Below are positions 9,903-43,050 of a DNA stretch of 43,607 nucleotides, one piece after another. The stretch is from a virus (taxonomy: Duplodnaviria; Caudoviricetes). The notes under the pieces are model-generated. The model made no database searches and was not told the DNA's origin. It saw only the letters and a program-made list of their open reading frames with translations. The translations under genes were made by a program, and so were the position numbers. How positions within the stretch are numbered: position 1 is the first letter of the stretch; the number at the start of each line of letters is the position of its first letter. The stretch spans positions 1 through 43,607 of IMG/VR virus record IMGVR_UViG_3300024051_000006; one strand, 5' to 3'.

Positions 9903-9980
9903 GGACAGCGTGAGCGATGGACGCTCAGGCGGCTGTAAACCGCCCGCTCCGGCACCCTGGTTCGATTCCAGGGCTGTCCA
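9903..9980 (+). tRNA. tRNA-Tyr(GTA), atypical, no encoded CCA
   Basis: Acceptor GGACAGC/GCTGTCC plus A discriminator; D stem GAGC/GCTC; anticodon GGCGG-CTGTAAA-CCGCC; 11-nt variable region; T arm CCTGG-TTCGATT-CCAGG. Confidence 0.8.
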
Positions 9981-10235
9981 CGAGACCCCCGCGTTCTAGG
10001 CCGTGGGGCGTCGTCTACTCCCCTCGTCACGGCCCGGACCGTCGACCAACACTCGCCGCGCATGCGACCGACGAGAGCCGTCGTGACGAGGGGGCACGAG
10101 CTCGACGAACACCTGAGGGCAGGGGCCCACCCCCCCTACCCGGGTACGTTCGAGACCGCGGGGTTCTGCTGATTTCCGGACGTACAGGTTCGGGCGCTTT
10201 CCAGTGGTGGCCATTCCCGAGCGTGGAGGTGCCCG

Positions 10236-25951: not shown

Positions 25952-26757
25952 TGCCGACCGGTGCAGATGGAGTGCTGACCGCCACGTGGCGATCGGGGGC
26001 TGCGGCGGTGTCGCTCGAGGTCGTCGGCACGGCGTGGCCGGTCGCGGTCGTCGAGGTGCGGATCATGCGGCTCGTCGCCGGGCAGCCGGACGTGCCGGTG
26101 CGTGGCGCGGACCGCGTGCCGGCCATCGCCGGCTTCTGGGTCGGCTCGGACCACGAGCAGCCGCTGCACTCCACGGTCGTCTACCAGGCGGTCGGGTGGA
26201 CGGCGGCGGGCGCGCAGGTCGTCTCGAGCATGGTGACCGTCGACACGACCGGCGCCCCTCACGGCATCTGGCTCAAGGCCGCCGGCCGCCCGAACCTCAC
26301 GGTGTGCACGGTCGGCCGATCCGTGGACGGCCCGACGTCGCACACCCAGGGAGGCGTCTACGACGTCGTCGGCGGGACCGGCGTCGCCGTCGCGTCCGTC
26401 GCCGGCGTCCAGGCCGACCGGGTCACGATGACGGTCGGGTCGCTGACCGTCGAGCAGGAGACCGCGATCCGTGCGCTGCTCACCACGACCCGCATCCTGC
26501 TCGTGCAGGACTGCGGGCACGACGTCATCGACTCGGGCTGGTACTACGTCGACTCGGTCCAGCGTGCCCCGCGCGACCCGCAGCACCTCCTGCCGGGCCG
26601 CAACCACACCCTCTCCCTGACCCGCACCGGCATCCCCGCGGGCGGAGGTCAGGGTGTCGTCGGCTGGTCGTGGGCTGCTGTGGAGGCGTCCTACGCGACG
26701 TGGGCTGACGTCGAGGCCGCCTACCCGACGTGGTTCGACCTCGAGCGGGGGGCGTGA
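25951..26757 (+). CDS. Minor tail protein (distal-tail position)
   Basis: Follows TMP; YATWADV..YPTW C-terminus. Confidence 0.75.
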   Translation: MPTGADGVLTATWRSGAAAVSLEVVGTAWPVAVVEVRIMRLVAGQPDVPVRGADRVPAIAGFWVGSDHEQPLHSTVVYQAVGWTAAGAQVVSSMVTVDTTGAPHGIWLKAAGRPNLTVCTVGRSVDGPTSHTQGGVYDVVGGTGVAVASVAGVQADRVTMTVGSLTVEQETAIRALLTTTRILLVQDCGHDVIDSGWYYVDSVQRAPRDPQHLLPGRNHTLSLTRTGIPAGGGQGVVGWSWAAVEASYATWADVEAAYPTWFDLERGA

Positions 26758-27902
26758 TGCAGCAGGTCTCCGCGCGCTTCCTGCCTGCCCTGTGCGGCCC
26801 GCACCGGGTGCAGGTGATGATCGAGTCCCGCCGCGGCGCGAGCGTCCTGTACTCCGGCATCCCCGTCGTCGACGGCAGCGTGACCGTCGACGGCACGGCT
26901 GTGTGCCGCCGCACCCTGTCCCTGACCGTGCCGCCACGCCTGTCCACCGGCCTGTACTCCGACCGCCCCTCCTTGCCGGACTCGCCGTCGCACCCGCTGG
27001 CCGCCTACGGCCAGGAGCTGCACGTCTCCTACGGCGTCGTCTACACCGATGACTCCGTCGAGTGGGTGCGTGCGGGCGTGTTCCGCATCGACTCGACGGC
27101 CGGCTCCCTGCTCGGCGACGGCACCGTGCAGGTGACCGCGCGCTCGCGGGAGGCGTTCATCGTCGACGCGCGTTTCCTCGCGCCGCGCACGGTCTCTGGC
27201 CCGTCGGTGACGTCGCTCATCGCGCAGCTCATCCACGAGGTGCTGCCGGGTGTCGAGGTCGTCGTCGCCGCGAGCCGTGACGCGCGCGTGCCCACGACGA
27301 CGTTCGACGAGGACCGGGCGGGGGCGATCACGTCGCTCGCGGAGTCGATCGGCGCGGTCTGGTACGCCGACGGCTGGGGGCGTTTCGTCGTGGCGGACGC
27401 ACCGTCGACGACGGGCACGCCCGCGTGGACGGTGCACGCGGGCGAGGGCGGCGTGCTCGTGAGCGCCTCGACGTCGACGACGCGCGACGGCGTCTACAAC
27501 GCCGTCGTCGTGCGCGGCGAGTCCCCGTCCGGGGATTTCCCGCCGATGCAGGCCACGGTGTACGACGAGGACCTCACGAGCCCGACCCGCTGGGGCGACC
27601 CGCACACGGGCCGCTTCGGCATGGTGCCCCGCTTCGAGTCCTACCCGACGGTCTCCACGCTCGAGCAGGCGCGCGCTGTCGGCCGCGGGCTGCTGGCGCA
27701 GTCGGTCGGCGCGGCGCACACCCTCGAGGCGTCCTCGGTCCCGAACCCTGCGCTGGAGCCCGGCGATCTCGTCCACGTCATCACCGACCCGGCCGACCCG
27801 GCCGGGAGCGTGCGCGCGCACATCGTCGACGGCTACACCCTCGGCCTGACCGCCGGGGCCGAGTTCCCCATTCGGACGCGTGACGTGAGGCAGGTGGCGT
27901 GA
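26757..27902 (+). CDS. Minor tail protein (baseplate hub-like)
   Basis: GSVTVD...RRTLSL, YNAVVVRGE, PNPALEPGD. Confidence 0.85.
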   Translation: MQQVSARFLPALCGPHRVQVMIESRRGASVLYSGIPVVDGSVTVDGTAVCRRTLSLTVPPRLSTGLYSDRPSLPDSPSHPLAAYGQELHVSYGVVYTDDSVEWVRAGVFRIDSTAGSLLGDGTVQVTARSREAFIVDARFLAPRTVSGPSVTSLIAQLIHEVLPGVEVVVAASRDARVPTTTFDEDRAGAITSLAESIGAVWYADGWGRFVVADAPSTTGTPAWTVHAGEGGVLVSASTSTTRDGVYNAVVVRGESPSGDFPPMQATVYDEDLTSPTRWGDPHTGRFGMVPRFESYPTVSTLEQARAVGRGLLAQSVGAAHTLEASSVPNPALEPGDLVHVITDPADPAGSVRAHIVDGYTLGLTAGAEFPIRTRDVRQVA

Positions 27903-28714
27903 TGGACCTGGCGCAGGGTGTGCGCGCGGCGGTCGCGCGCGACCGACAGTCGGGCGCGTATCTCGGCACGGTGACGGCGATCGACGCGACCGCGCTCGCG
28001 CTGACCGTCGACATCGGCACGGGCACGCCGCTGACGGGCGTGCGCTGGGTCGGCTCCTACGTCCCGGCGGTCGACGATTTCGTGACGGTGCTGCGCGCAG
28101 GGTCGGCGTGGATCGTCCTCGGCAAGCTCTCCAAGGACCTCACGGGGCCGGGCTTCATTGAGCAGACGGCGTACATCCAGCCGGCGTCGTGGGTCCTCGG
28201 CGGCGCATGGACCGACCAGCTGCCGCCCGACGACGGCTGGGACTGGCTGCTCGCCTACGACTCGATCCAGCAGGGCTCCGACTTCGCCGACGAGGCCTAC
28301 GGCATGCGCCAGTATGCGGCGATCGCCTTCTACCAGTCGGTCGCCGCGCAGATCCCTGTGGGGGCGACCGTCACGGCCGCGCGCGTGCGCTTCGCTCGCA
28401 TCGAGGCGATCTGGGCCGGGTCGTCGGGGTCCTCGCTGGTCTCCCCGGTGATCTCCGGGCACGCGCAGGCGACCATGCCGCCCGCCGGGCGCACCCCGGC
28501 GTCGATGAAGCTCGCCGCGTACACGGACTGGCGTCCAGGCACGCTCGCGGTCGGGCAGGCCGTCTCGTGGGCGCTGCCATCTGCGTGGCTGACGGCGCTG
28601 ATGTCGGGGGCGATGACGGGCCTGATGATCCACTCCACGCGCGTCGACGACTACGCGTGGTTCCAGACGGACCTCTCCGGCGTCCTCGAGATCACCTACC
28701 GCATCCCGGCCTAG
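27899..28714 (+). CDS. Minor tail protein
   Basis: N-terminal OB-like GTVTA...YVPAVDD.V.V...VLG; IPVGATVTAARV. Confidence 0.75.
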   Translation: MMDLAQGVRAAVARDRQSGAYLGTVTAIDATALALTVDIGTGTPLTGVRWVGSYVPAVDDFVTVLRAGSAWIVLGKLSKDLTGPGFIEQTAYIQPASWVLGGAWTDQLPPDDGWDWLLAYDSIQQGSDFADEAYGMRQYAAIAFYQSVAAQIPVGATVTAARVRFARIEAIWAGSSGSSLVSPVISGHAQATMPPAGRTPASMKLAAYTDWRPGTLAVGQAVSWALPSAWLTALMSGAMTGLMIHSTRVDDYAWFQTDLSGVLEITYRIPA

Positions 28715-28723
28715 GAGGCTGCC

Positions 28724-28990
28724 GTGTCTGACCTGCCCGACGACACCCCGCCCGACGACGACGTCCCGACCGGGGAGGTCCCCGACGTCGAGGAGCCCGG
28801 ACCTGAGTCCGCGCACGACGACGGCGAGCACGACGACGTCGCACCCGAGCCGACGCCGACGCTCGCGGACCTGCTCGCTCTGCTCGGCCTGCCGACCGAC
28901 GCGCGCGCGCTCGTCGTCACCCCCGAGACCGTCGTGGCGATCGCCGCCGACTATCCCGAGCCCTACACCCCGCCCGCCGAGGAGGCCTGA
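28724..28990 (+). CDS. Acidic hypothetical protein
   Basis: AGGAGG RBS. Confidence 0.6.
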   Translation: MSDLPDDTPPDDDVPTGEVPDVEEPGPESAHDDGEHDDVAPEPTPTLADLLALLGLPTDARALVVTPETVVAIAADYPEPYTPPAEEA

Positions 28991-28992
28991 CC

Positions 28993-29547
28993 ATGGCGAC
29001 CACCACCATCCAGCCCCTGCCGTACCCCGGCCCGCTCGACCCGCCTGCTGGTCCCGCGCAGATCAAGGCGCTCGCCGAGGCGATCGAGGGCCGCACCGTC
29101 ATGCGCTTCGCGACCGCCGCGGCCCGCGACGCCGCGATCCCCAGCGGCGCGCGCGTCGCCGGGATGATGTGCTTCATCGAGGCCGACAACGGTGTTTATG
29201 TCTGGAGCGGGAGCGCATGGGGCGTCGTCTGGCAGGACACGGGTTGGGTGAACATCACGCTCGCGGCGGGGTTCACCGCGCTGTCGCCCGTGCGCGTGCG
29301 ACGCATCGGCCAGGTCGTCCACTGGCGCGGACGCATCGGAGGACCCTGGACGACCTCGTACCAGATCGTCGTGCCACCTGCGAACCTCCCGGCCGGGGTG
29401 CTGATCGGTGGCCTCGGCTGGGCTCTCAACACGGGCTCTCCGACGTTCTCCGCGATTGCTGTCATGGACTCCGGCGGGTTCAAGGTCGCGTGTAACAGCC
29501 CGTCTTCAGGCGTCCACCTCGACGGCATCATGTACCCGGTGAGCTGA
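28993..29547 (+). CDS. Tail fibre / receptor-binding protein, variant A (constant 65 aa plus variable domain A)
   Basis: LPYP, RFATAAARDAAIP..GM constant part; DTGWVNITL...RRIGQVVHWRG fibre C-domain. Confidence 0.8.
   Translation: MATTTIQPLPYPGPLDPPAGPAQIKALAEAIEGRTVMRFATAAARDAAIPSGARVAGMMCFIEADNGVYVWSGSAWGVVWQDTGWVNITLAAGFTALSPVRVRRIGQVVHWRGRIGGPWTTSYQIVVPPANLPAGVLIGGLGWALNTGSPTFSAIAVMDSGGFKVACNSPSSGVHLDGIMYPVS
29179..29206 (+). repeat. Inversion site 1 (dif-like): GAGGCCGACAA-CGGTGT-TTATGTCTGGA
   Basis: 16-bp core 29188-29203 is the exact inverse of 29963-29978. Confidence 0.85.
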
Positions 29548-29976
29548 CCAGTGCGTCAGCTGGCGCGGTAGGAGCCCTCGACGGTGATCGTGTCGCTCGC
29601 GCCCCACGTCCACGGGACGCTCGCGCCCGCGACCGTGCCCGACTCCGAGGTGATCGAGATCGTCGTCCCGGCCCACCGCGACGCATGGAAGGCACGGACC
29701 GCCGACGCGCTCGCGTCGTAGAGCAGCGCGCGGCCGAGAAGTGCTCGCGCCCCAAGGACGCTCGACGACGCAGGCAGCCCCAGGACGACCGTGCCGGTGA
29801 CGGACGACGACGAGCCGAGCACGAGCTCGATCTGGTAGTGGACGACGCCGCCGACGATCGCGTATGCGCCGGCGATCGTGCCGTTGCCGAGGGCGACGCC
29901 CGCGATGGTCGGGATGTACGTCCGCCACGCCGTGTACAGGGCCCGCCACTGCCCCCCGGAGTAGACATAAACACCG
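29190..29976. mobile_element. Invertible tail-fibre cassette
   Basis: Inverted repeats flank two convergent, in-frame alternative 3' gene halves. Confidence 0.85.
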
Positions 29977-29978
29977 TT
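29556..29978 (-). CDS. Silent alternative C-terminal domain B of the tail fibre (fuses in frame after inversion; 205 aa product)
   Basis: NGVYVYSGGQWRALYTAWRTYIPTIAGVALGNGTIAGAY...GSYRAS*; open from the repeat to the stop, no start at its 5' end. Confidence 0.85.
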   Translation of the reverse strand, partial: NGVYVYSGGQWRALYTAWRTYIPTIAGVALGNGTIAGAYAIVGGVVHYQIELVLGSSSSVTGTVVLGLPASSSVLGARALLGRALLYDASASAVRAFHASRWAGTTISITSESGTVAGASVPWTWGASDTITVEGSYRAS

Positions 29979-29987
29979 CTCAGGCTA
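29960..29987 (-). repeat. Inversion site 2 (dif-like): TAGCCTGAGAA-CGGTGT-TTATGTCTACT
   Basis: Same 6-bp spacer and TTATGTCT as site 1, opposite strand. Confidence 0.85.
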
Positions 29988-30080: not shown

Positions 30081-30452
30081 ATGACCTACGACCCCGGCCT
30101 CGGCGCGCTCGAGCACACCCAGCCCAACGCTCGACGCCCGATCGCGGAGGACCCAACCCTCGCCGTCGTCCTGTCCAAGCTCTCGGACCTGCGCGAGGAC
30201 GTCCTCGAGCTGCGCGCCGAGGTCCGCGCGTCCTCCGCCAACGTCGTCGCGCGCGGCGAGTGGCAGCAGCGCAACGCTGCCGTGGACGCGTCTTTCACGG
30301 CGCAGGGCCGCGAGATCGCGCAGCTGCGCACCGACATCGTCCAGGCGCGCACCCTCGCCGAGACCCGCCGCGCCCCCTGGTGGTCCGTCGTCGCAGCGAT
30401 CGGCTCCGTCGTCGCCGTCGCAGCCGTCCTCATCCCCGCCCTCGCCCGCTAG
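30081..30452 (+). CDS. Coiled-coil membrane protein of the lysis cassette
   Basis: Coiled coil plus C-terminal TM; precedes endolysin. Confidence 0.7.
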   Translation: MTYDPGLGALEHTQPNARRPIAEDPTLAVVLSKLSDLREDVLELRAEVRASSANVVARGEWQQRNAAVDASFTAQGREIAQLRTDIVQARTLAETRRAPWWSVVAAIGSVVAVAAVLIPALAR

Positions 30453-30465
30453 GAGGCACCCCCTC

Positions 30466-31329
30466 ATGCAGCAGCAGACCATCGCGCCCGGGCACTGGCT
30501 CGCCCCTGCCCCGGCCGCGTCCTACGCCCGGATGATCCGCGACGGCTGCCCGCCCGGCATCACCTCCGCGGGCCGCACCACCGCGGAGCAGCGCTCGATC
30601 TTCCTGGCCCGCTACCGCCCGCAGGCCACCGGCTCTGGCCCCTACGGCGACGTGGTCACGTGGCAGGGCGTGCGCTACGTGCGCGTGTCGGGCCCCTCGC
30701 CCGCGTCCCCGCCCGGGTCGGTGTGGTCCCTGCACGAGCGCGGCGACGCGATCGACGTGCCCGAGCCCGCCCGCGCCTGGATTCGCACCCACGGCGCGCC
30801 CTACGGCTGGGTCCGAGACACCGTGCCCGGCGAGCCCTGGCACATGGTCTACCAGCCCGACCGTGACACCCGCCCGGGCAGCGTCATCCCGCTGCCGACC
30901 GACCTCCCGGAGGACACCATGCGCCGCATCACCCACACCCGCACGAAGAAGGTCGCGCTCCCGAAGGGCGCGTGGACGACCGCGCCCATCGACGACAAGG
31001 GCAACACGTCCGCGTGCACCGTCGCGGGCCGCGGGCTCGTCGTCGCCGACCTCACCCTCACCGGCGTCCCCAAGGGCAAGGAGGTCCAGGCGCGCGTCAT
31101 CGTCGTCGACACCGACCCCGCCGGCAAGGGAGCCAAGATCGTCTCCCGCGGCCGCATCGTCGAGATCATCGGCACCGGCGGCTCCACGTTCGGCCAGATC
31201 GTCGCGCCCATCGACCTACCCAAGGTCACCGGCACGCGCTCCCGCCGCGCGCGCGTCCAGATCCTCGCCCTCGACGCCGGGGTCACCCTCACCGCCCTGA
31301 CCACCACCACCGACCTCATCCCCGCCTGA
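30466..31329 (+). CDS. Endolysin, M15-type Zn peptidase
   Basis: ITSAGRT..EQ, SLHERGDAID, EPWH motifs. Confidence 0.88.
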   Translation: MQQQTIAPGHWLAPAPAASYARMIRDGCPPGITSAGRTTAEQRSIFLARYRPQATGSGPYGDVVTWQGVRYVRVSGPSPASPPGSVWSLHERGDAIDVPEPARAWIRTHGAPYGWVRDTVPGEPWHMVYQPDRDTRPGSVIPLPTDLPEDTMRRITHTRTKKVALPKGAWTTAPIDDKGNTSACTVAGRGLVVADLTLTGVPKGKEVQARVIVVDTDPAGKGAKIVSRGRIVEIIGTGGSTFGQIVAPIDLPKVTGTRSRRARVQILALDAGVTLTALTTTTDLIPA

Positions 31330-31338
31330 GAGGACACC

Positions 31339-31674
31339 ATGACCCGCACCTGGCTCCACGCCGCCCTCGTCCGCGCCGTGCGCACCGTCGCGCAGACCGC
31401 CGTCGCCCTCATCGGCACCAGCGCCCTCGGCGTCCTCGACGTCGACTGGATCGCCGTCACCTCCGCCTCCGCGCTCGCGGGCATCGTCTCGGTGCTCACG
31501 TCCGTCGCAGGCCTGCCCGAGGCCGCACCGCCCGCCGTCGTCGCCACGGGCATCGCGCCGCCGACGCTCGCCGAGCTCGTCGACCGCGCTGACGAGCGCG
31601 TGGACCCCGCGACCGTCCCCGACCCCGACGAGGACGACGGCGAGGACCCCGACCCGGACCCGACCGATGAGTGA
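31339..31674 (+). CDS. Holin (r1t family)
   Basis: RAVRTVAQTAVALIG...VDW...SVLTSVAGLPE. Confidence 0.92.
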   Translation: MTRTWLHAALVRAVRTVAQTAVALIGTSALGVLDVDWIAVTSASALAGIVSVLTSVAGLPEAAPPAVVATGIAPPTLAELVDRADERVDPATVPDPDEDDGEDPDPDPTDE

Positions 31675-31865: not shown

Positions 31866-32333
31866 TCAGGACTTCCCGTTCCCGTTCTCGCCCTTCGGGA
31901 AGAGGTAGTTCGCGACGATGTACATGAGGCCGATCACCTGGACGACTGTGCTCGTGAACCATGCGATGAGAACGCTAGATTCGATCGGGCTGTCCTCGCG
32001 ATAGCAGTATGCGATGTAGCTCGCCATCAGCGCGCCCGTGGCAACCAGCGTCCAAACCATCGTGCGCTTGATGGTCGTCGCGAACGACTGCCGGAGCGTC
32101 CGGGTCTGGGCGCGGTCGGAGCGATCATGCTTGAGCATCTCGCGCTCATGCTCCTCCATCTGGAGGCGTCGACGCCGCTCGAAGTCATCGTCGAGGCTCT
32201 CGCGAGAACGAGGAACTCTTGCAGCGCTACGCACGGATTCCACCGTCGACCGCAGGGGCACGTCCCTGCCCTTGATCTCATCAAAGAGGGCTCGATCGAG
32301 GTCTCGACGAGTCCGAGGACGCGGATCAGACAT
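31866..32333 (-). CDS. 2-TM membrane protein (accessory)
   Basis: Two C-terminal hydrophobic helices ending VIGLMYIVANYLFP; lower GC. Confidence 0.75.
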   Translation of the reverse strand: MSDPRPRTRRDLDRALFDEIKGRDVPLRSTVESVRSAARVPRSRESLDDDFERRRRLQMEEHEREMLKHDRSDRAQTRTLRQSFATTIKRTMVWTLVATGALMASYIAYCYREDSPIESSVLIAWFTSTVVQVIGLMYIVANYLFPKGENGNGKS

Positions 32334-32808
32334 CGAGCCGTTCGCGGCGCTTCCGCACCGCCGCTGGGCTCACGCCGAACTTCGCGGCGGCCAGGTAGTC
32401 GGAGCCGTGAGCCTTGATATCAGCCCGGAAATGCTTCTCCGGCATCAGCAAGTTGCCCGCGAACTCGTCGGCGTAGAACTCGTGGAGGTCATACTTCCCC
32501 GGGAGCCGCTCCTCGACGAAGGAGTACTCCTCGTCGCCAGCCTGCTTCCGCTCGAAGTAGTGCCCGAGCTCGTGGGCGCAGGTGAAGGTCTGACGTCCGA
32601 AGTTGTCGCTCTCCTCAACGAGGATCGTGATCTCCCCGGCCTGGGCGACGATCGCCCCGGAGAGCTCGGGCCTGAGCGATGCGACGATCACCTTCATGCC
32701 GAGACTGTCTGCGATACCGAACGGGTCGATGGGGAACGTCGAGCCGTCCCAGTGCTCCTTGAGCACGCTCTCGGCCGCGACCTTGGCCGCTTCCTTGACT
32801 AGCATCAT
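32326..32808 (-). CDS. ImmA/IrrE-family metallopeptidase (second copy)
   Basis: PIDPFGIA, RQTFTCAHELGH, EFYADEFAGNLLMP, FGVS..AV..R. Confidence 0.88.
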   Translation of the reverse strand: MMLVKEAAKVAAESVLKEHWDGSTFPIDPFGIADSLGMKVIVASLRPELSGAIVAQAGEITILVEESDNFGRQTFTCAHELGHYFERKQAGDEEYSFVEERLPGKYDLHEFYADEFAGNLLMPEKHFRADIKAHGSDYLAAAKFGVSPAAVRKRRERLDV

Positions 32809-32936
32809 CCACCCCCAATCACCTACCGCCGACGCTACCTGGTAGGTCCATCTTGTGCTATGACCGAACTCACGGCGAGTCCTGGTTGATGCCTCGGCAT
32901 GCTGACACTCGGCCTTGAGCCAGCACGCAATCCTCG

Positions 32937-34860: not shown

Positions 34861-36111
34861 CTACTCCCCTCCGTCGAGCGCGAGCCTCTCCCCCAGCCGC
34901 GCCATGGCGTCCCGTCCGAGCGCCGTCGAGACATGCGTGTAGCCAGCCGTGACCGCGGCCGAGTTGTGCCCCATGATCGCCATGCGCGTCCGCTCGTCCA
35001 CGCCGAGTTCGAGCAGCAGCGTCGCCGTGGTGTGGCGCGCCGAGTGCAGCGGCGCGTCAGGCAGCCCGGCCCGCCTGAGTGCCGCGTCCCACGCTGCAGC
35101 GTCGTCGCGCGGGTCGATCGGGTGCCCGTCGCCACGATGGAAGATCAGGCCAGCGTCACCCGGCGTCGCGACCTCGAGGTGCCGCTCGATGACCTCGGCG
35201 AGCAGCGGGGCCATGGGCACCTCACGCCACCCGGCGCGCGACTTCGGGCGCGTCATCCAGAGTCCGCCGTAGACCTGTCGCGCCTCTTGGTCGGACGGGA
35301 TGCGCACGTGGCGGTCCGGGCAGTAGCCGGCGCGCGTGTACTCGCACGGCCACCCGCCGGTCGGCTTCTCGTCGGCACACCCGTGCTCCCACCGTAGGCG
35401 CTGGATCTGCCACGAGACCGTGATGACACCGGCGTCGAGGTCGACCGCGTCGCGCGTGATGCCGAGCCTCTCGCCCTGCCGCATGCCCGTGAGCAGCGCG
35501 ACGGACCAGTGCGGGGCCTCGTCGGGGTTCGTCGCGACGCTCCGGAGCAGCGTGACCGCCTGGTCGGCCGTGAGCGCGGCGCGCGTGCTGACGGCGCGGC
35601 GTGGCGCGTCGAGGAGCGTCGCCACGTTGCGCGTGACGCGACCCTCGCGCTCGGCGTCAGTGAGTGCCTTGGCGAGGATGCGGTGCGCCTGCAACGCGGT
35701 CGTCGTCGAGCGACCCGCGCGGAGGATCGCGTCGTGCACCTCCCGGACGTGCGCGGGCGTGAGGCGGTCGAGCCGACGCGTGCCGATGGTGGGGACGATC
35801 CACGTGTTGACGTACCCCTGATAGGTCGCGAGCGTCCTCGGCTTGAGGCGCGGGCGAGCGATGGTCTCGAGCCATAGGTTCATCCACGTCGCGACCGTGG
35901 GGCTCGACGTCGGCAGATCGCCCGCGCGGTCGAGCTCGCGTCGCATGTCGGCGAGGAGGCGCGACGCCCCGGCCTTCGTCTTGTGCGTCTTGACCTTCCG
36001 ACGTCGCTTGCCGTCACGGTCGGGCAGCGTGATGGACGCGACCCACATGCCGTCGCTGGTCCGCTGGTAGAGCGACCCTGCGTGGGCGTCCCGTCGTGCC
36101 GTGCGTGCCAT
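34861..36111 (-). CDS. int: Tyrosine integrase
   Basis: GSLYQR N-terminal arm-binding domain; GMRQGE, PKS, HSARH, MGH, GYTH catalytic residues. Confidence 0.95.
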   Translation of the reverse strand: MARTARRDAHAGSLYQRTSDGMWVASITLPDRDGKRRRKVKTHKTKAGASRLLADMRRELDRAGDLPTSSPTVATWMNLWLETIARPRLKPRTLATYQGYVNTWIVPTIGTRRLDRLTPAHVREVHDAILRAGRSTTTALQAHRILAKALTDAEREGRVTRNVATLLDAPRRAVSTRAALTADQAVTLLRSVATNPDEAPHWSVALLTGMRQGERLGITRDAVDLDAGVITVSWQIQRLRWEHGCADEKPTGGWPCEYTRAGYCPDRHVRIPSDQEARQVYGGLWMTRPKSRAGWREVPMAPLLAEVIERHLEVATPGDAGLIFHRGDGHPIDPRDDAAAWDAALRRAGLPDAPLHSARHTTATLLLELGVDERTRMAIMGHNSAAVTAGYTHVSTALGRDAMARLGERLALDGGE

Positions 36112-36130
36112 GGTGCACCTCCCTGCCCCT

Positions 36131-36384
36131 ACTGTAGCCACGACTGTAGCCACGCACCCGCGCGCACATGCGCGCACCCGCTTGTCAAGAATGGCAGAAT
36201 CTCGCGGCTTCCGAGGCCCTTCCGCCCCCCTCAGACTACCCGACCGTCAGACTCATAATCCGTCGGTCCTGGGTTCAAGCCCCAGATGCCTCACGCAGAA
36301 TCCCGCCGATCCTGACGGGCCGAGCGGCGGGCACTGTAGCCACACCTTTAGCCAAGGCCGAAAATCGCTGCTCGGCTGTAGCCA
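36131..36384 (+). other. attP: attP: arm-type repeats (A)CTGTAGCCA flanking a tRNA(CAT) 3'-half core at 36250-36284
   Basis: Repeats at 36131, 36143, 36333, 36345 (degenerate), 36375; core GACTCATAATCCGTCGGTCCTGGGTTCAAGCCCCA spans anticodon loop to T arm. Confidence 0.88.
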
Positions 36385-36685: not shown

Positions 36686-37084
36686 TCACGCGCCGAACGC
36701 GCACCGTGTCGCGCGCACGGGCCGCTCGAGCCACAGCGTGACGAGGTGCGCCGTCACGCCGAGCTCGCGCGCCATGGCTCCCGGATGCCCGCCCGTGAGC
36801 GCGGCCGCGACCTCGACCTCGACGGGATCGATGAGCAGCCGCGCGGCATACATGTCGGCCTGGCGCTCGTCGCGCTCGACGTCGTGCGCGCGCGTCCAGT
36901 CGTGGCCGTGGTGGTGGTGGCCGACCTCGTGCGCGATCGTCACACGCTGGGTCAGGGTCGACTTGCGGTGGTTGACCACGACGAGCCCGGAGCGGGTGAG
37001 TTCCCCGCTGCGCCTGCCGAGGTCGCGCCACACCACACGGAGGCCCTGTTCCTCCGCGTGGGCGACGAGGTCGTCAAGTGTCAC
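36686..37084 (-). CDS. ImmA/IrrE metallopeptidase (repressor-cleaving)
   Basis: QRVTIAHEVGH, ERQADMYAARLLI; coupled to the repressor gene. Confidence 0.88.
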   Translation of the reverse strand: MTLDDLVAHAEEQGLRVVWRDLGRRSGELTRSGLVVVNHRKSTLTQRVTIAHEVGHHHHGHDWTRAHDVERDERQADMYAARLLIDPVEVEVAAALTGGHPGAMARELGVTAHLVTLWLERPVRATRCAFGA

Positions 37085-41289: not shown

Positions 41290-41393
41290 CCGCCGACGAG
41301 TGGGCCGGGCTGGCCATCGTCGGCGCGATCCTCGCGGCCGTCGCATGGACGGTCGACCGCATCGACAAGGACAGGAAGAGGGAGGGGCGATGA
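41286..41393 (+). CDS. Tiny single-TM protein
   Basis: WAGLAIVGAILAAVAW followed by a basic tail. Confidence 0.5.
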   Translation: MTADEWAGLAIVGAILAAVAWTVDRIDKDRKREGR

Positions 41394-42154
41394 GCCTCAA
41401 GTTCAGCGCGAAGGCGCACCGCTACTGGCTCGACGGCAAGCCCGTCCCCGGCGTCACCACGATCCTCGGCAAGGGCATCCCGAAGCCCGCGCTGCCGTAC
41501 TGGGCGGCGAGGATGGTCGCCGAGTACGTGGCCGACGAGCCCGAGAAGGTCGACGCGCTGCGCGAGGCCGGTCGCGACCCGATGGTCGCCGCGCTCAAGA
41601 GCGTGCCGTGGACCCGCCGCGACCAGGCCGGGCTGCGCGGCACCGAGATCCACGCGCTCGCAGACCTGCTCGCGCACGGCGAGGAGGTCTCAGTCCCCGA
41701 GCAGCACGTCCACGAGGTTACGGGGCTGGCTGAGTGGCTCGACGAGTTCGACGCCACCCCGATCCTCACCGAGCGATCCGTCGCGCACCGCGGCCACCGC
41801 TACGCGGGGCGGCTCGACTTCCTCGGCACGCTCGGCGCGCTCGGCACCGAGACGTGGCTCCTCGACTGGAAGACGTCCTCGGGCGTCTACGGCGAGACGG
41901 CGCTGCAGACCGCCGCCTACGCGCACGCCGAGTTCTACGTCGAGGACGACGCTCCCGACGTCGAGCACCCCATGCCCCATGTCGACCGCATCGGCGTCGT
42001 CCACGTCACCCCGGACGGCTCCCACCTCTACGACCTCGGCGAGCCCGCCGAGGCGTTCGAGCACTTCCTCGCCGCCAAGGCCGTCGCCGACGCCACCGTC
42101 TGGCGCGACAGCATCATCGGCGACCCGATCACAGCACCCAAGGAGATCCCGTGA
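41390..42154 (+). CDS. PD-(D/E)XK (Cas4/RecE-like) exonuclease
   Basis: PGVTTIL, RGTEIH, YAGRLD, LLDWKTS, LQTAAY. Confidence 0.88.
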   Translation: MSLKFSAKAHRYWLDGKPVPGVTTILGKGIPKPALPYWAARMVAEYVADEPEKVDALREAGRDPMVAALKSVPWTRRDQAGLRGTEIHALADLLAHGEEVSVPEQHVHEVTGLAEWLDEFDATPILTERSVAHRGHRYAGRLDFLGTLGALGTETWLLDWKTSSGVYGETALQTAAYAHAEFYVEDDAPDVEHPMPHVDRIGVVHVTPDGSHLYDLGEPAEAFEHFLAAKAVADATVWRDSIIGDPITAPKEIP

Positions 42155-43050
42155 CCGCCCTGACCATCCACGAGCCCGCGCAGTCGGGCCTCGCCACCAC
42201 CTCCGCGCCCGACCCGACCGGCGGCAGGCTCGTCGCCTGGGCCGAGGCCGCGTCGGCCGCGAACCAGCTCGCCAAGGCGCTCGCGACGACCGCGTTCGTC
42301 CCGCAGGCGATGCGCAACCCCGGCGACGCGACCGCCGCGATCCTCATGGGCGACGAGCTCGGCCTCTCCCCGCTCGCCGCGCTCCGCTCGATCTACGTCG
42401 TGCACGGCACGCCCGCGCTGTACGCGCGCAGCATGGTCGCGCTCGCCCAGTCGCACGGGCACGAGATCTGGACCGAGGAGTCCTCGGACGCGAAGGTCGT
42501 CGTGTGCGGCCGGCGTCGCGGCTCGGAGAAGGTCGAGCGCTCGGAGTGGACGATCCAGCGCGCACAGAAGGCGGGCTACACGTCCAACAAGAAGTACGCC
42601 TCGAACCCGCAGGAGATGCTCTACTCCAAGGCCGCCGGCGAGGTGGCTCGGAAGATCGCGGCCGACACGCTCGCGGGCATTCCGTACTCGGTGGAGGACA
42701 TCGAGCTCGGCGAGCAGCCGACCGTGACGGTGCAGCGCGAGCCGGTGAAGCGGACGGTGGCGCGCAAGGCGAAGGTCGCCGCCCCCGCGCCCCGGGCGAA
42801 CACCGACCCTGACCCCATCGACGTCACCGACGCCGAGGTCCTGCCGGACGAGGAGCCGGAGGGCGACGTGCTCACGGACCGCACGCGCGGCCGGATGTTC
42901 GCGCTCTTCGCCGAGCAGGGCATCGAGGACCCGGACGTCCAGCGGTCGGGCATGTCCTCGATCCTCGGGCGCGCCGTCGCGTCGCGGTCGTCGCTCACGG
43001 AGGCCGAGGCGCGCGAGGTCATCGCGTCGCTCGAGGCTCGGCAGTCGTGA
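42151..43050 (+). CDS. RecT-like ssDNA annealing protein
   Basis: FVPQAMR.PGDATAAILMG.ELGL.P..ALRSIYVVHG.P; W...RA.KAG; P.EML. Confidence 0.8.
   Translation: MTALTIHEPAQSGLATTSAPDPTGGRLVAWAEAASAANQLAKALATTAFVPQAMRNPGDATAAILMGDELGLSPLAALRSIYVVHGTPALYARSMVALAQSHGHEIWTEESSDAKVVVCGRRRGSEKVERSEWTIQRAQKAGYTSNKKYASNPQEMLYSKAAGEVARKIAADTLAGIPYSVEDIELGEQPTVTVQREPVKRTVARKAKVAAPAPRANTDPDPIDVTDAEVLPDEEPEGDVLTDRTRGRMFALFAEQGIEDPDVQRSGMSSILGRAVASRSSLTEAEAREVIASLEARQS

Follow-up and report, generated by a model that had tools for sequence, protein, structure and literature searches.

Inverted dif-like sites at the fibre gene of a temperate actinophage suggest inversion of alternative tips by host XerCD

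We found that the fibre gene of a temperate actinophage contains a dif-like site whose inverted partner heads a second, silent tip, and we consider it probable that the host XerCD recombinase inverts this fibre cassette. At the level of sequence, the support consists of inverted dif-like sites, matched spacers, a crossover that keeps the reading frame, an intact second tip, and no adjacent recombinase. A preliminary description of this DNA had proposed host Xer as the fibre invertase; that inferred mechanism is supported, each computational check having come out in its favour. The DNA analysed here (the window) comprises positions 1 to 43,607 of the IMG/VR record IMGVR_UViG_3300024051_000006. 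It is the genome of a temperate tailed phage, with terminase, portal, capsid, tail, lysis, integrase, and repressor genes, and it is probably a complete circle, since a single reading frame spans both its ends. We infer that the host is Sanguibacter or close kin, because the top two named fibre homologues are Sanguibacter proteins and the attP region matches one Sanguibacter genome at two places (94-95%). The attP region also matches tRNA-Met genes in three further genomes.

Several other features of the window were recorded. A tRNA-Tyr(GTA) gene (9903-9981) is located upstream of the terminase genes. Between the lysis genes and the integrase is a minus-strand island of lower GC (31866-32850), which encodes an IrrE/ImmA-like metallopeptidase (PF06114) and a membrane-protein-like gene; a second IrrE/ImmA-like peptidase is encoded at 36686-37084.

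The fibre, or receptor-binding protein, is 184 aa long (28993..29547, plus strand) and consists of a constant N-terminal part of 64 aa followed by the resident tip A. The silent tip B lies on the minus strand (29556..29981); it has 141 open codons, a GC3 of 0.92, and a stop just before it. The predicted invertible segment, measured from spacer to spacer, spans 29190..29976 and holds the two tips tail to tail. An inversion within the core would fuse the constant 64 residues to tip B in frame, giving a protein of 205 aa. When tip B was compared with 19 other homologues, three matched: the expressed tips of P0009, P0010, and P0018 share 32-35% identity with it (E 2e-16 to 2e-13). The model of the resident fibre has a pLDDT of 73; at E 1e-3 to 1e-2, its best fold matches, receptor-binding head domains from lactococcal and Listeria phages, are no more than suggestive of a receptor-binding protein. 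A search of cultured phages with the window fibre gave no match, and one with the fibre of the related locus L151 gave two weak records, both from one Streptomyces phage. The sole dataset, probably the source of the window, is one run kept as contigs; there the cassette is seen in one orientation, in one contig, with no strand-changing joint, but rare variants drop out of such contigs, and absence of the flipped form is not shown by them.

Site 1 (29179..29206, plus strand) lies in frame within the fibre gene, where its codons read E-A-D-N-G-V-Y-V-W. Site 2 (29960..29987, minus strand) is its inverted partner, with the same spacer and inner right arm; the outer arm of site 2 is degenerate and falls outside every fibre reading frame. 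Both 28-mers, their 11-6-11 parse, and the common spacer CGGTGT were as the preliminary description had read them. From homology to E. coli dif, site 1 has a putative XerC arm outside the invertible segment and a putative XerD arm inside it. The two sites share an exact 16-bp inverted repeat (29188-29203 / 29978-29963). The length of this repeat alone is not significant: a 16-bp inverted repeat within 2 kb arises in 24 of 100 codon-block shuffles, and the pair is not among the 25 longest inverted repeats reported by a generic repeat finder. Its composition is distinctive. In the window it is the only 16-bp inverted repeat with at most 8 G+C, none of 500 shuffles yields one, and the motif TTATGT is found on either strand only at sites 1 and 2.

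The published actinobacterial difs have in common the core CCGATAA-N6-TTATGT (table in PMC3025954). The actinobacterial dif consensus used in the preliminary description agrees with that table; it also agrees with the consensus of our host-family matrix, except in the outer right arm. A hand count reproduced the arm matches reported there against this consensus (right arms 8/11 and 9/11, left arms 7/11 and 6/11, for sites 1 and 2). The dif-type pattern matched 270 of 401 genomes of the host order, mostly once, and a reversed control matched few. The arm matrix was built from 28 distinct host-family sites; it draws on 30 loci, from which two apparently secondary ones were removed, with L202 and L203 added. 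Scoring with such a matrix, as had been proposed, placed the two sites first and second among the 87,160 28-mers of the window: site 1 scored 16.8 bits and site 2 scored 7.2, and the next 28-mer scored 3.6. Real host-family difs score far above both (31.6-44.6 bits).

The suggestion that the host dif should be compared with the arms also bore out, in that host-family difs resemble them. Against the dif of L202, a named Sanguibacter genome, site 1 matches at 8/11 positions on the left and 9/11 on the right, and site 2 at 5/11 and 7/11. Across two Sanguibacter-type difs, 16-17 of the 22 arm bases match in site 1 and 12-14 in site 2, whose left arm retains 5-6 of 11 dif bases. The spacer CGGTGT matches host-type difs at only one of six positions (seven difs, including L202). 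Both window sites lack the inner-left-arm T seen in all matrix sites, where the T is universal by construction, the core of the matrix having been fixed by the search pattern. By hand count, the inner XerC-arm core is matched at 6/7 positions in site 1 and 5/7 in site 2.

Dif-like sites were also seen in other settings. An unrelated GC-rich viral contig (L013, 2992-3019) has a near-perfect and apparently intergenic site with the same spacer, CGGTGT, as the window. A search for the exact 15-bp core across viral contigs gave 64 single matches and no pairs, L013 being the sole GC-rich match. Among bacteria, one genus has extra perfect dif-like sites (L385, G157:C37, 488-967; G770, G780, G789, G812, and G828). 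These sets have a common non-chromosomal spacer, some are inverted, and several lie close to the ends of contigs. Their appearance is that of pdif modules, here in an actinobacterium. One host-family genome has three dif-like sites in direct repeat with one spacer (L386, G529:C52, at 53, 3307, and 4710, minus strand), and several others have a second dif-like site.

The preliminary description had proposed a scan for inverted pairs without an adjacent recombinase, and such pairs are indeed found again in other phages of actinobacteria, in some cases in both orientations. From 135 related loci we inspected 24, picked for longer N-terminal matches, and in five of these (L147, L148, L151, L067, and L145) a dif-like site occupies the same codon. 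In L147, L148, and L151 an inverted partner is located 0.7 kb away and heads an intact silent tip. Each of these pairs has its own spacer, ranks first and second within its own locus by the dif matrix, and has the full CCGATAA core in both sites; this 7/7 match of the inner XerC-arm core, present in all six sites, is also found in six cultured BP isolates. With the window included, spacers are identical in three of the four actinophage pairs. The exception, L147, has one mismatch. The right core is matched at only 5/7 positions in L147 and L151, which have an atypical right arm in common, and the right arm of L148 begins with C, a change described as likely inactivating in Acinetobacter (PMC13141974). 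In L067 and L145 there is only one site, which is weaker and has no partner passing the filter. The silent tip of L148 resembles both tips of L151, which indicates that tips move between phages. A search of the family Cellulomonadaceae, covering 337 genomes, gave 22 matches in 19 of them but added no pair: ten matches were dropped (nine unoriented, one mis-oriented), and of the 12 correctly oriented ones three were known loci and nine had neither a site nor an inverted repeat longer than 11 bp. A named Sanguibacter prophage (L146, 14399-15818) with an integrase 91% identical to that of the window has a fibre without a dif-like site or a spare tip.

These comparisons bear on whether the switch of this phage is a relic, that is, whether XerCD drove it in the ancestry and the decayed outer arms no longer recombine. 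Outward of the spacer, the window sites share only two contiguous bases, as against 7-8 in the relatives; site 2 scores as low as given above, no flipped form was present in the contigs of the one run, and among close relatives L067 retains a single site and L146 lacks one altogether. Decay of this kind would leave unexplained why the silent tip is intact with its high GC3 and why the two sites still agree fully in spacer and inner right arm. The departures of the arms also have precedents: a predicted Shewanella dif shows the same T-to-C change as site 1 (PMC2731167), and XerC arms differ within active pdif pairs (PMC9947245). We regard a relic as decidedly improbable, and XerCD-driven inversion in the present phage as the better reading.

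Larger numbers of pairs came from phages of Bifidobacterium type. A motif scan of viral contigs gave at least 127 rows at no fewer than 80 loci, and from the matches listed we chose by eye 46 records with a site in fibre context, 28 of them at least 90% complete. One of these records matches eight cultured Bifidobacterium phages at ~83%; the host of the second subgroup is less sure than that of the first, since its record matches cultured phages over a short stretch only. An inverted pair is present in six of the eight cultured isolates, all six in one common orientation, and is absent from the other two. Sites of this type are near-perfect difs; those of the isolates match the published B. 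adolescentis dif at 8 bases on the left and 10 on the right (hand count). Of the 45 records parsed among the matches listed, a partner is present in 18; in 20, no candidate within at least 2 kb passed the filter, and the other 7 are truncated or mis-parsed. A looser filter reveals weaker partners in some of the 20. Some Bifidobacterium-type phages (L223, L251, L257, and L274-L279) show segments of greater length (1.1-1.6 kb) or additional weak sites, a hint that their cassettes may hold three or more tips.

Spacers are identical within 16 of the 18 pairs and differ between phages. In the group with variable spacers, 8 of 9 pairs are identical, where permutation gave a mean of 2.8 (P=0.0008); this figure could be inflated by relatedness and by gene conversion. 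Opposite orientations of the same cassettes were seen, and their breakpoints fall within the sites: in all six pairwise comparisons the inverted block ends in the sites and the flanks are collinear. On a flank tree of 13 rows, from which L215 was left out for its short flank, orientation changes three times, and a single change was obtained in 0% of 200 bootstrap trees; orientation thus changed at least twice. The opposite orientations come from different genomes, 79-93% alike, and not from one population. The Bifidobacterium and window fibres match weakly around the joint motif (E 0.027), and because this identity is weak the Bifidobacterium-type phages are analogues or distant kin of the present phage. 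Our confidence in inversion by XerCD is somewhat higher for the Bifidobacterium family than for this phage.

Inversions of this kind could also be driven by homology at short repeats, through annealing by phage RecT or Erf or through template switching, the likeness to dif being a by-product of the fibre peptide motif or of a dif captured long ago. Enzymes for such a route are at hand: the window encodes an exonuclease and a RecT-like annealing protein (41300..43050, plus strand) as well as RusA, and the Bifidobacterium isolate BP677P3 has genes for an Erf-like protein and for a nuclease resembling RecE. The repeats extend inward over 21-48 bp in L147 and L151, and the peptide motif D-x-x-x-Y-V by itself favours dif-like DNA, as in the unrelated fibres L240, L258, and L259. 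A typical host dif translates as A-D-N-A-H-Y-V (hand reading), which is the joint peptide of the second Bifidobacterium-type subgroup, so a dif could double as coding sequence here. Peptide and homology nevertheless leave much of the pattern unaccounted for. The AT-ending codons at the site, pointed out in the preliminary description, are indeed rare in seven window ORFs (TAT 3/70 Tyr, GTT 7/249 Val, GGT 15/308 Gly). Random synonymous codons for the same peptide reach the dif score of site 1 with P=0.0019, and in this test of rare codons and dif score by synonymous recoding all six sites tested gave P values of 0.001-0.024. Although fibre translation never reaches the outer arm of the silent site, the dif core is conserved in that arm among the Bifidobacterium-type pairs (14-18 of 18 at each position from -7 to -1), and outward homology stops at its edge, after 7-8 bp in L147, L148, L151, and L336. 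The repeat of the window, moreover, is only 16 bp long. Inversion by homology alone is therefore unlikely in our estimation, and host XerCD remains the favoured agent.

The only site-specific recombinase found in the window is a tyrosine integrase with an N-terminal SAM-like domain (34861..36177, minus strand), 4.9 kb from site 2. Its probable target is the attP core at 36250..36290 (plus strand), which matches host tRNA-Met(CAT) genes over their 3' part and is unlike the inversion sites. A third TTATG of the window (36258, minus strand) was considered as a link between integrase and sites and rejected, because its register differs from that of the site arms; it appears to be the tRNA anticodon loop within attP. 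Neither the minor tail genes upstream of the fibre (26730..28990, plus strand) nor the genes downstream of the cassette, the last of which encodes a holin (30081..31674, plus strand), gave a recombinase match. Small and large serine recombinases and IS110-type enzymes had no match in the window, although a very divergent enzyme could escape. With the same proviso, profile searches with PF00589 and PF00239 matched none of the 46 Bifidobacterium-type records; PF07508 matched none of the 28 near-complete ones, and the 46 annotated genes of BP677P3 include no site-specific recombinase.

An enzyme other than XerCD could act in trans, either the integrase of the phage or another tyrosine recombinase of the host or a co-resident element with Xer-like specificity. 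Apart from the window integrase, candidates are the short arm-less tyrosine recombinases of L147 and L151, encoded 2.8 and ~4.6 kb downstream, past the lysis genes, in the two loci with the common atypical right arm, and the 5-10 PF00589 matches in each host-side genome. A recombinase supplied in trans has also been proposed for a Bifidobacterium prophage (PMC6109161). The L147 enzyme is itself probably an integrase, because a 35-bp copy of a tRNA-Asn end adjoins it. It is unrelated to the window integrase (E 0.19), and the two have different tRNA att sites, whereas the fibre sites are of one type. The lack of a detected recombinase in the 46 Bifidobacterium-type records and the fact that the site arms follow the chromosomal dif also speak against an enzyme of this sort, and we think it an improbable source of the inversion. 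As for the preferred enzyme, each of four host-side genomes has two Xer-sized genes scoring 257-330 bits on XerC/XerD models; only one of these eight Xer-like genes passes a curated cut-off.

A near-perfect site is not always accompanied by a partner. At 20 single-site loci (within L207-L285), and in L067 at 6187, a near-perfect in-frame site is kept and the tips after it vary widely. A site may thus persist for a reason other than inversion, since 20 of the 45 parsed records, together with L067 and L145, have a single one. Integration at the host dif (as in IMEX) or resolution of phage genome dimers might be such a function, with inversion incidental; the many relatives that keep a single site fit this reading, and IMEX elements are well known (PMC5357621). 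For the window it is very improbable: the spacer hardly matches that of host difs, the phage has its own integrase and tRNA attP, and the site is in frame at the joint of constant and variable parts with a partner that heads an intact tip. Single-site phages with variable tips could instead reflect tip exchange between genomes. A broader and more tentative proposal, to which we give less than even weight, is that actinobacterial phages, among them phages of gut bacteria that lack any recombinase, wrote the host dif into the coding joint of the fibre and use XerCD as a free engine for tip switching; phages with a spare tip would invert it, and single-site phages would exchange tips between co-infecting genomes, with a shared pool of receptor-binding cassettes as the result.

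In the mechanism that we favour, the chromosome-dimer resolvase XerCD of the host would synapse the two phage sites, with XerC on the outer arm and XerD on the inner arm, and invert the ~0.8 kb cassette of two alternative tips. The matched spacers would permit exchange between the two phage sites, and the difference of this spacer from the host dif (one match in six) would keep the phage from recombining with the chromosome. The outer arms of the window are the weakest among the pairs found, and its XerC-side arms are weaker than those of the relatives; such arms would make flipping rare. Inversion would swap the predicted receptor-binding tip, and the tips would differ in receptor. The tie between switching and host cell-cycle state that the preliminary description raised found no support in the analysis, and there is precedent for XerCD acting without FtsK, in the phage TLC (PMC5357621).

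If this mechanism is correct, a housekeeping enzyme of chromosome segregation drives receptor switching in a phage, and searches for invertases in the neighbourhood of cassettes miss some phage phase variation. It would also name a candidate enzyme for recombinase-less phage inversions earlier ascribed to a trans factor, and bear on the host-range stability of such phages. Near-perfect sites are present in the cultured Bifidobacterium phages BP677/BP742, and the question is therefore testable by PCR, reporters, and xer mutants. The literature that we searched, which covers few subscription journals, contained no phage fibre inversion driven by host Xer. Xer is unmentioned in PMC9881135 and in the available portion of a cyanophage preprint that concerns long repeats (10.64898/2026.02.14.705889).

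The closest parallels are found in four known systems. Like the cassette described here, the Rin shufflon of Bifidobacterium prophages and the Gin, Cin, and Min systems join a constant N-terminus to alternative receptor-binding C-termini by inversion (PMC6109161). Those systems have their own invertase beside the cassette, whereas the present one has none adjacent, and the 11-bp rix site of Rin, as given in that paper, is not dif-like. The same study describes a second inversion of ~500 bp in a structural gene of prophages 689b-1 and Bb423phi2, for which its authors suggest an invertase acting in trans. That inversion resembles ours in affecting a structural gene without a flanking recombinase, and in prophages that integrate at tRNA-Met; the main text names no enzyme for it and contains no match to XerC or dif (PMC6109161). 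A search for its 8-bp crossover as a dif-like site gave 13 + 2 matches, none in a fibre pair.

The IMEX elements (the CTX, VGJ, and TLC phages and the gonococcal island) are likewise mobile elements that depend on host XerCD, use degenerate dif-like sites, and in some cases dispense with FtsK (PMC5357621). They integrate at the chromosomal dif, whereas the phage spacer here differs from the host dif and the predicted outcome is inversion within the phage genome. Reversible inversion is reported for Acinetobacter plasmids between pdif sites in opposite orientation whose spacers and XerD arms are identical and whose XerC arms differ (PMC9947245); a further precedent for inversion between pdif pairs comes from the same genus, in which one spacer mismatch adjoining the XerC arm is tolerated (PMC13141974). 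The window pair has this same pattern, with identical spacer and inner arm and differing XerC arms, and its segment, like the D module of the pdif system, has the D arms inside. The plasmid modules are whole genes between intergenic sites; the phage site, in contrast, is in frame within a structural gene, and its inversion would swap a domain. Hijacking of Xer, known from integration and plasmid shuffling, would thereby reach the swapping of domains within a gene, and a fibre switch driven by XerCD would join two known kinds of system, the fibre shufflons and pdif inversion.
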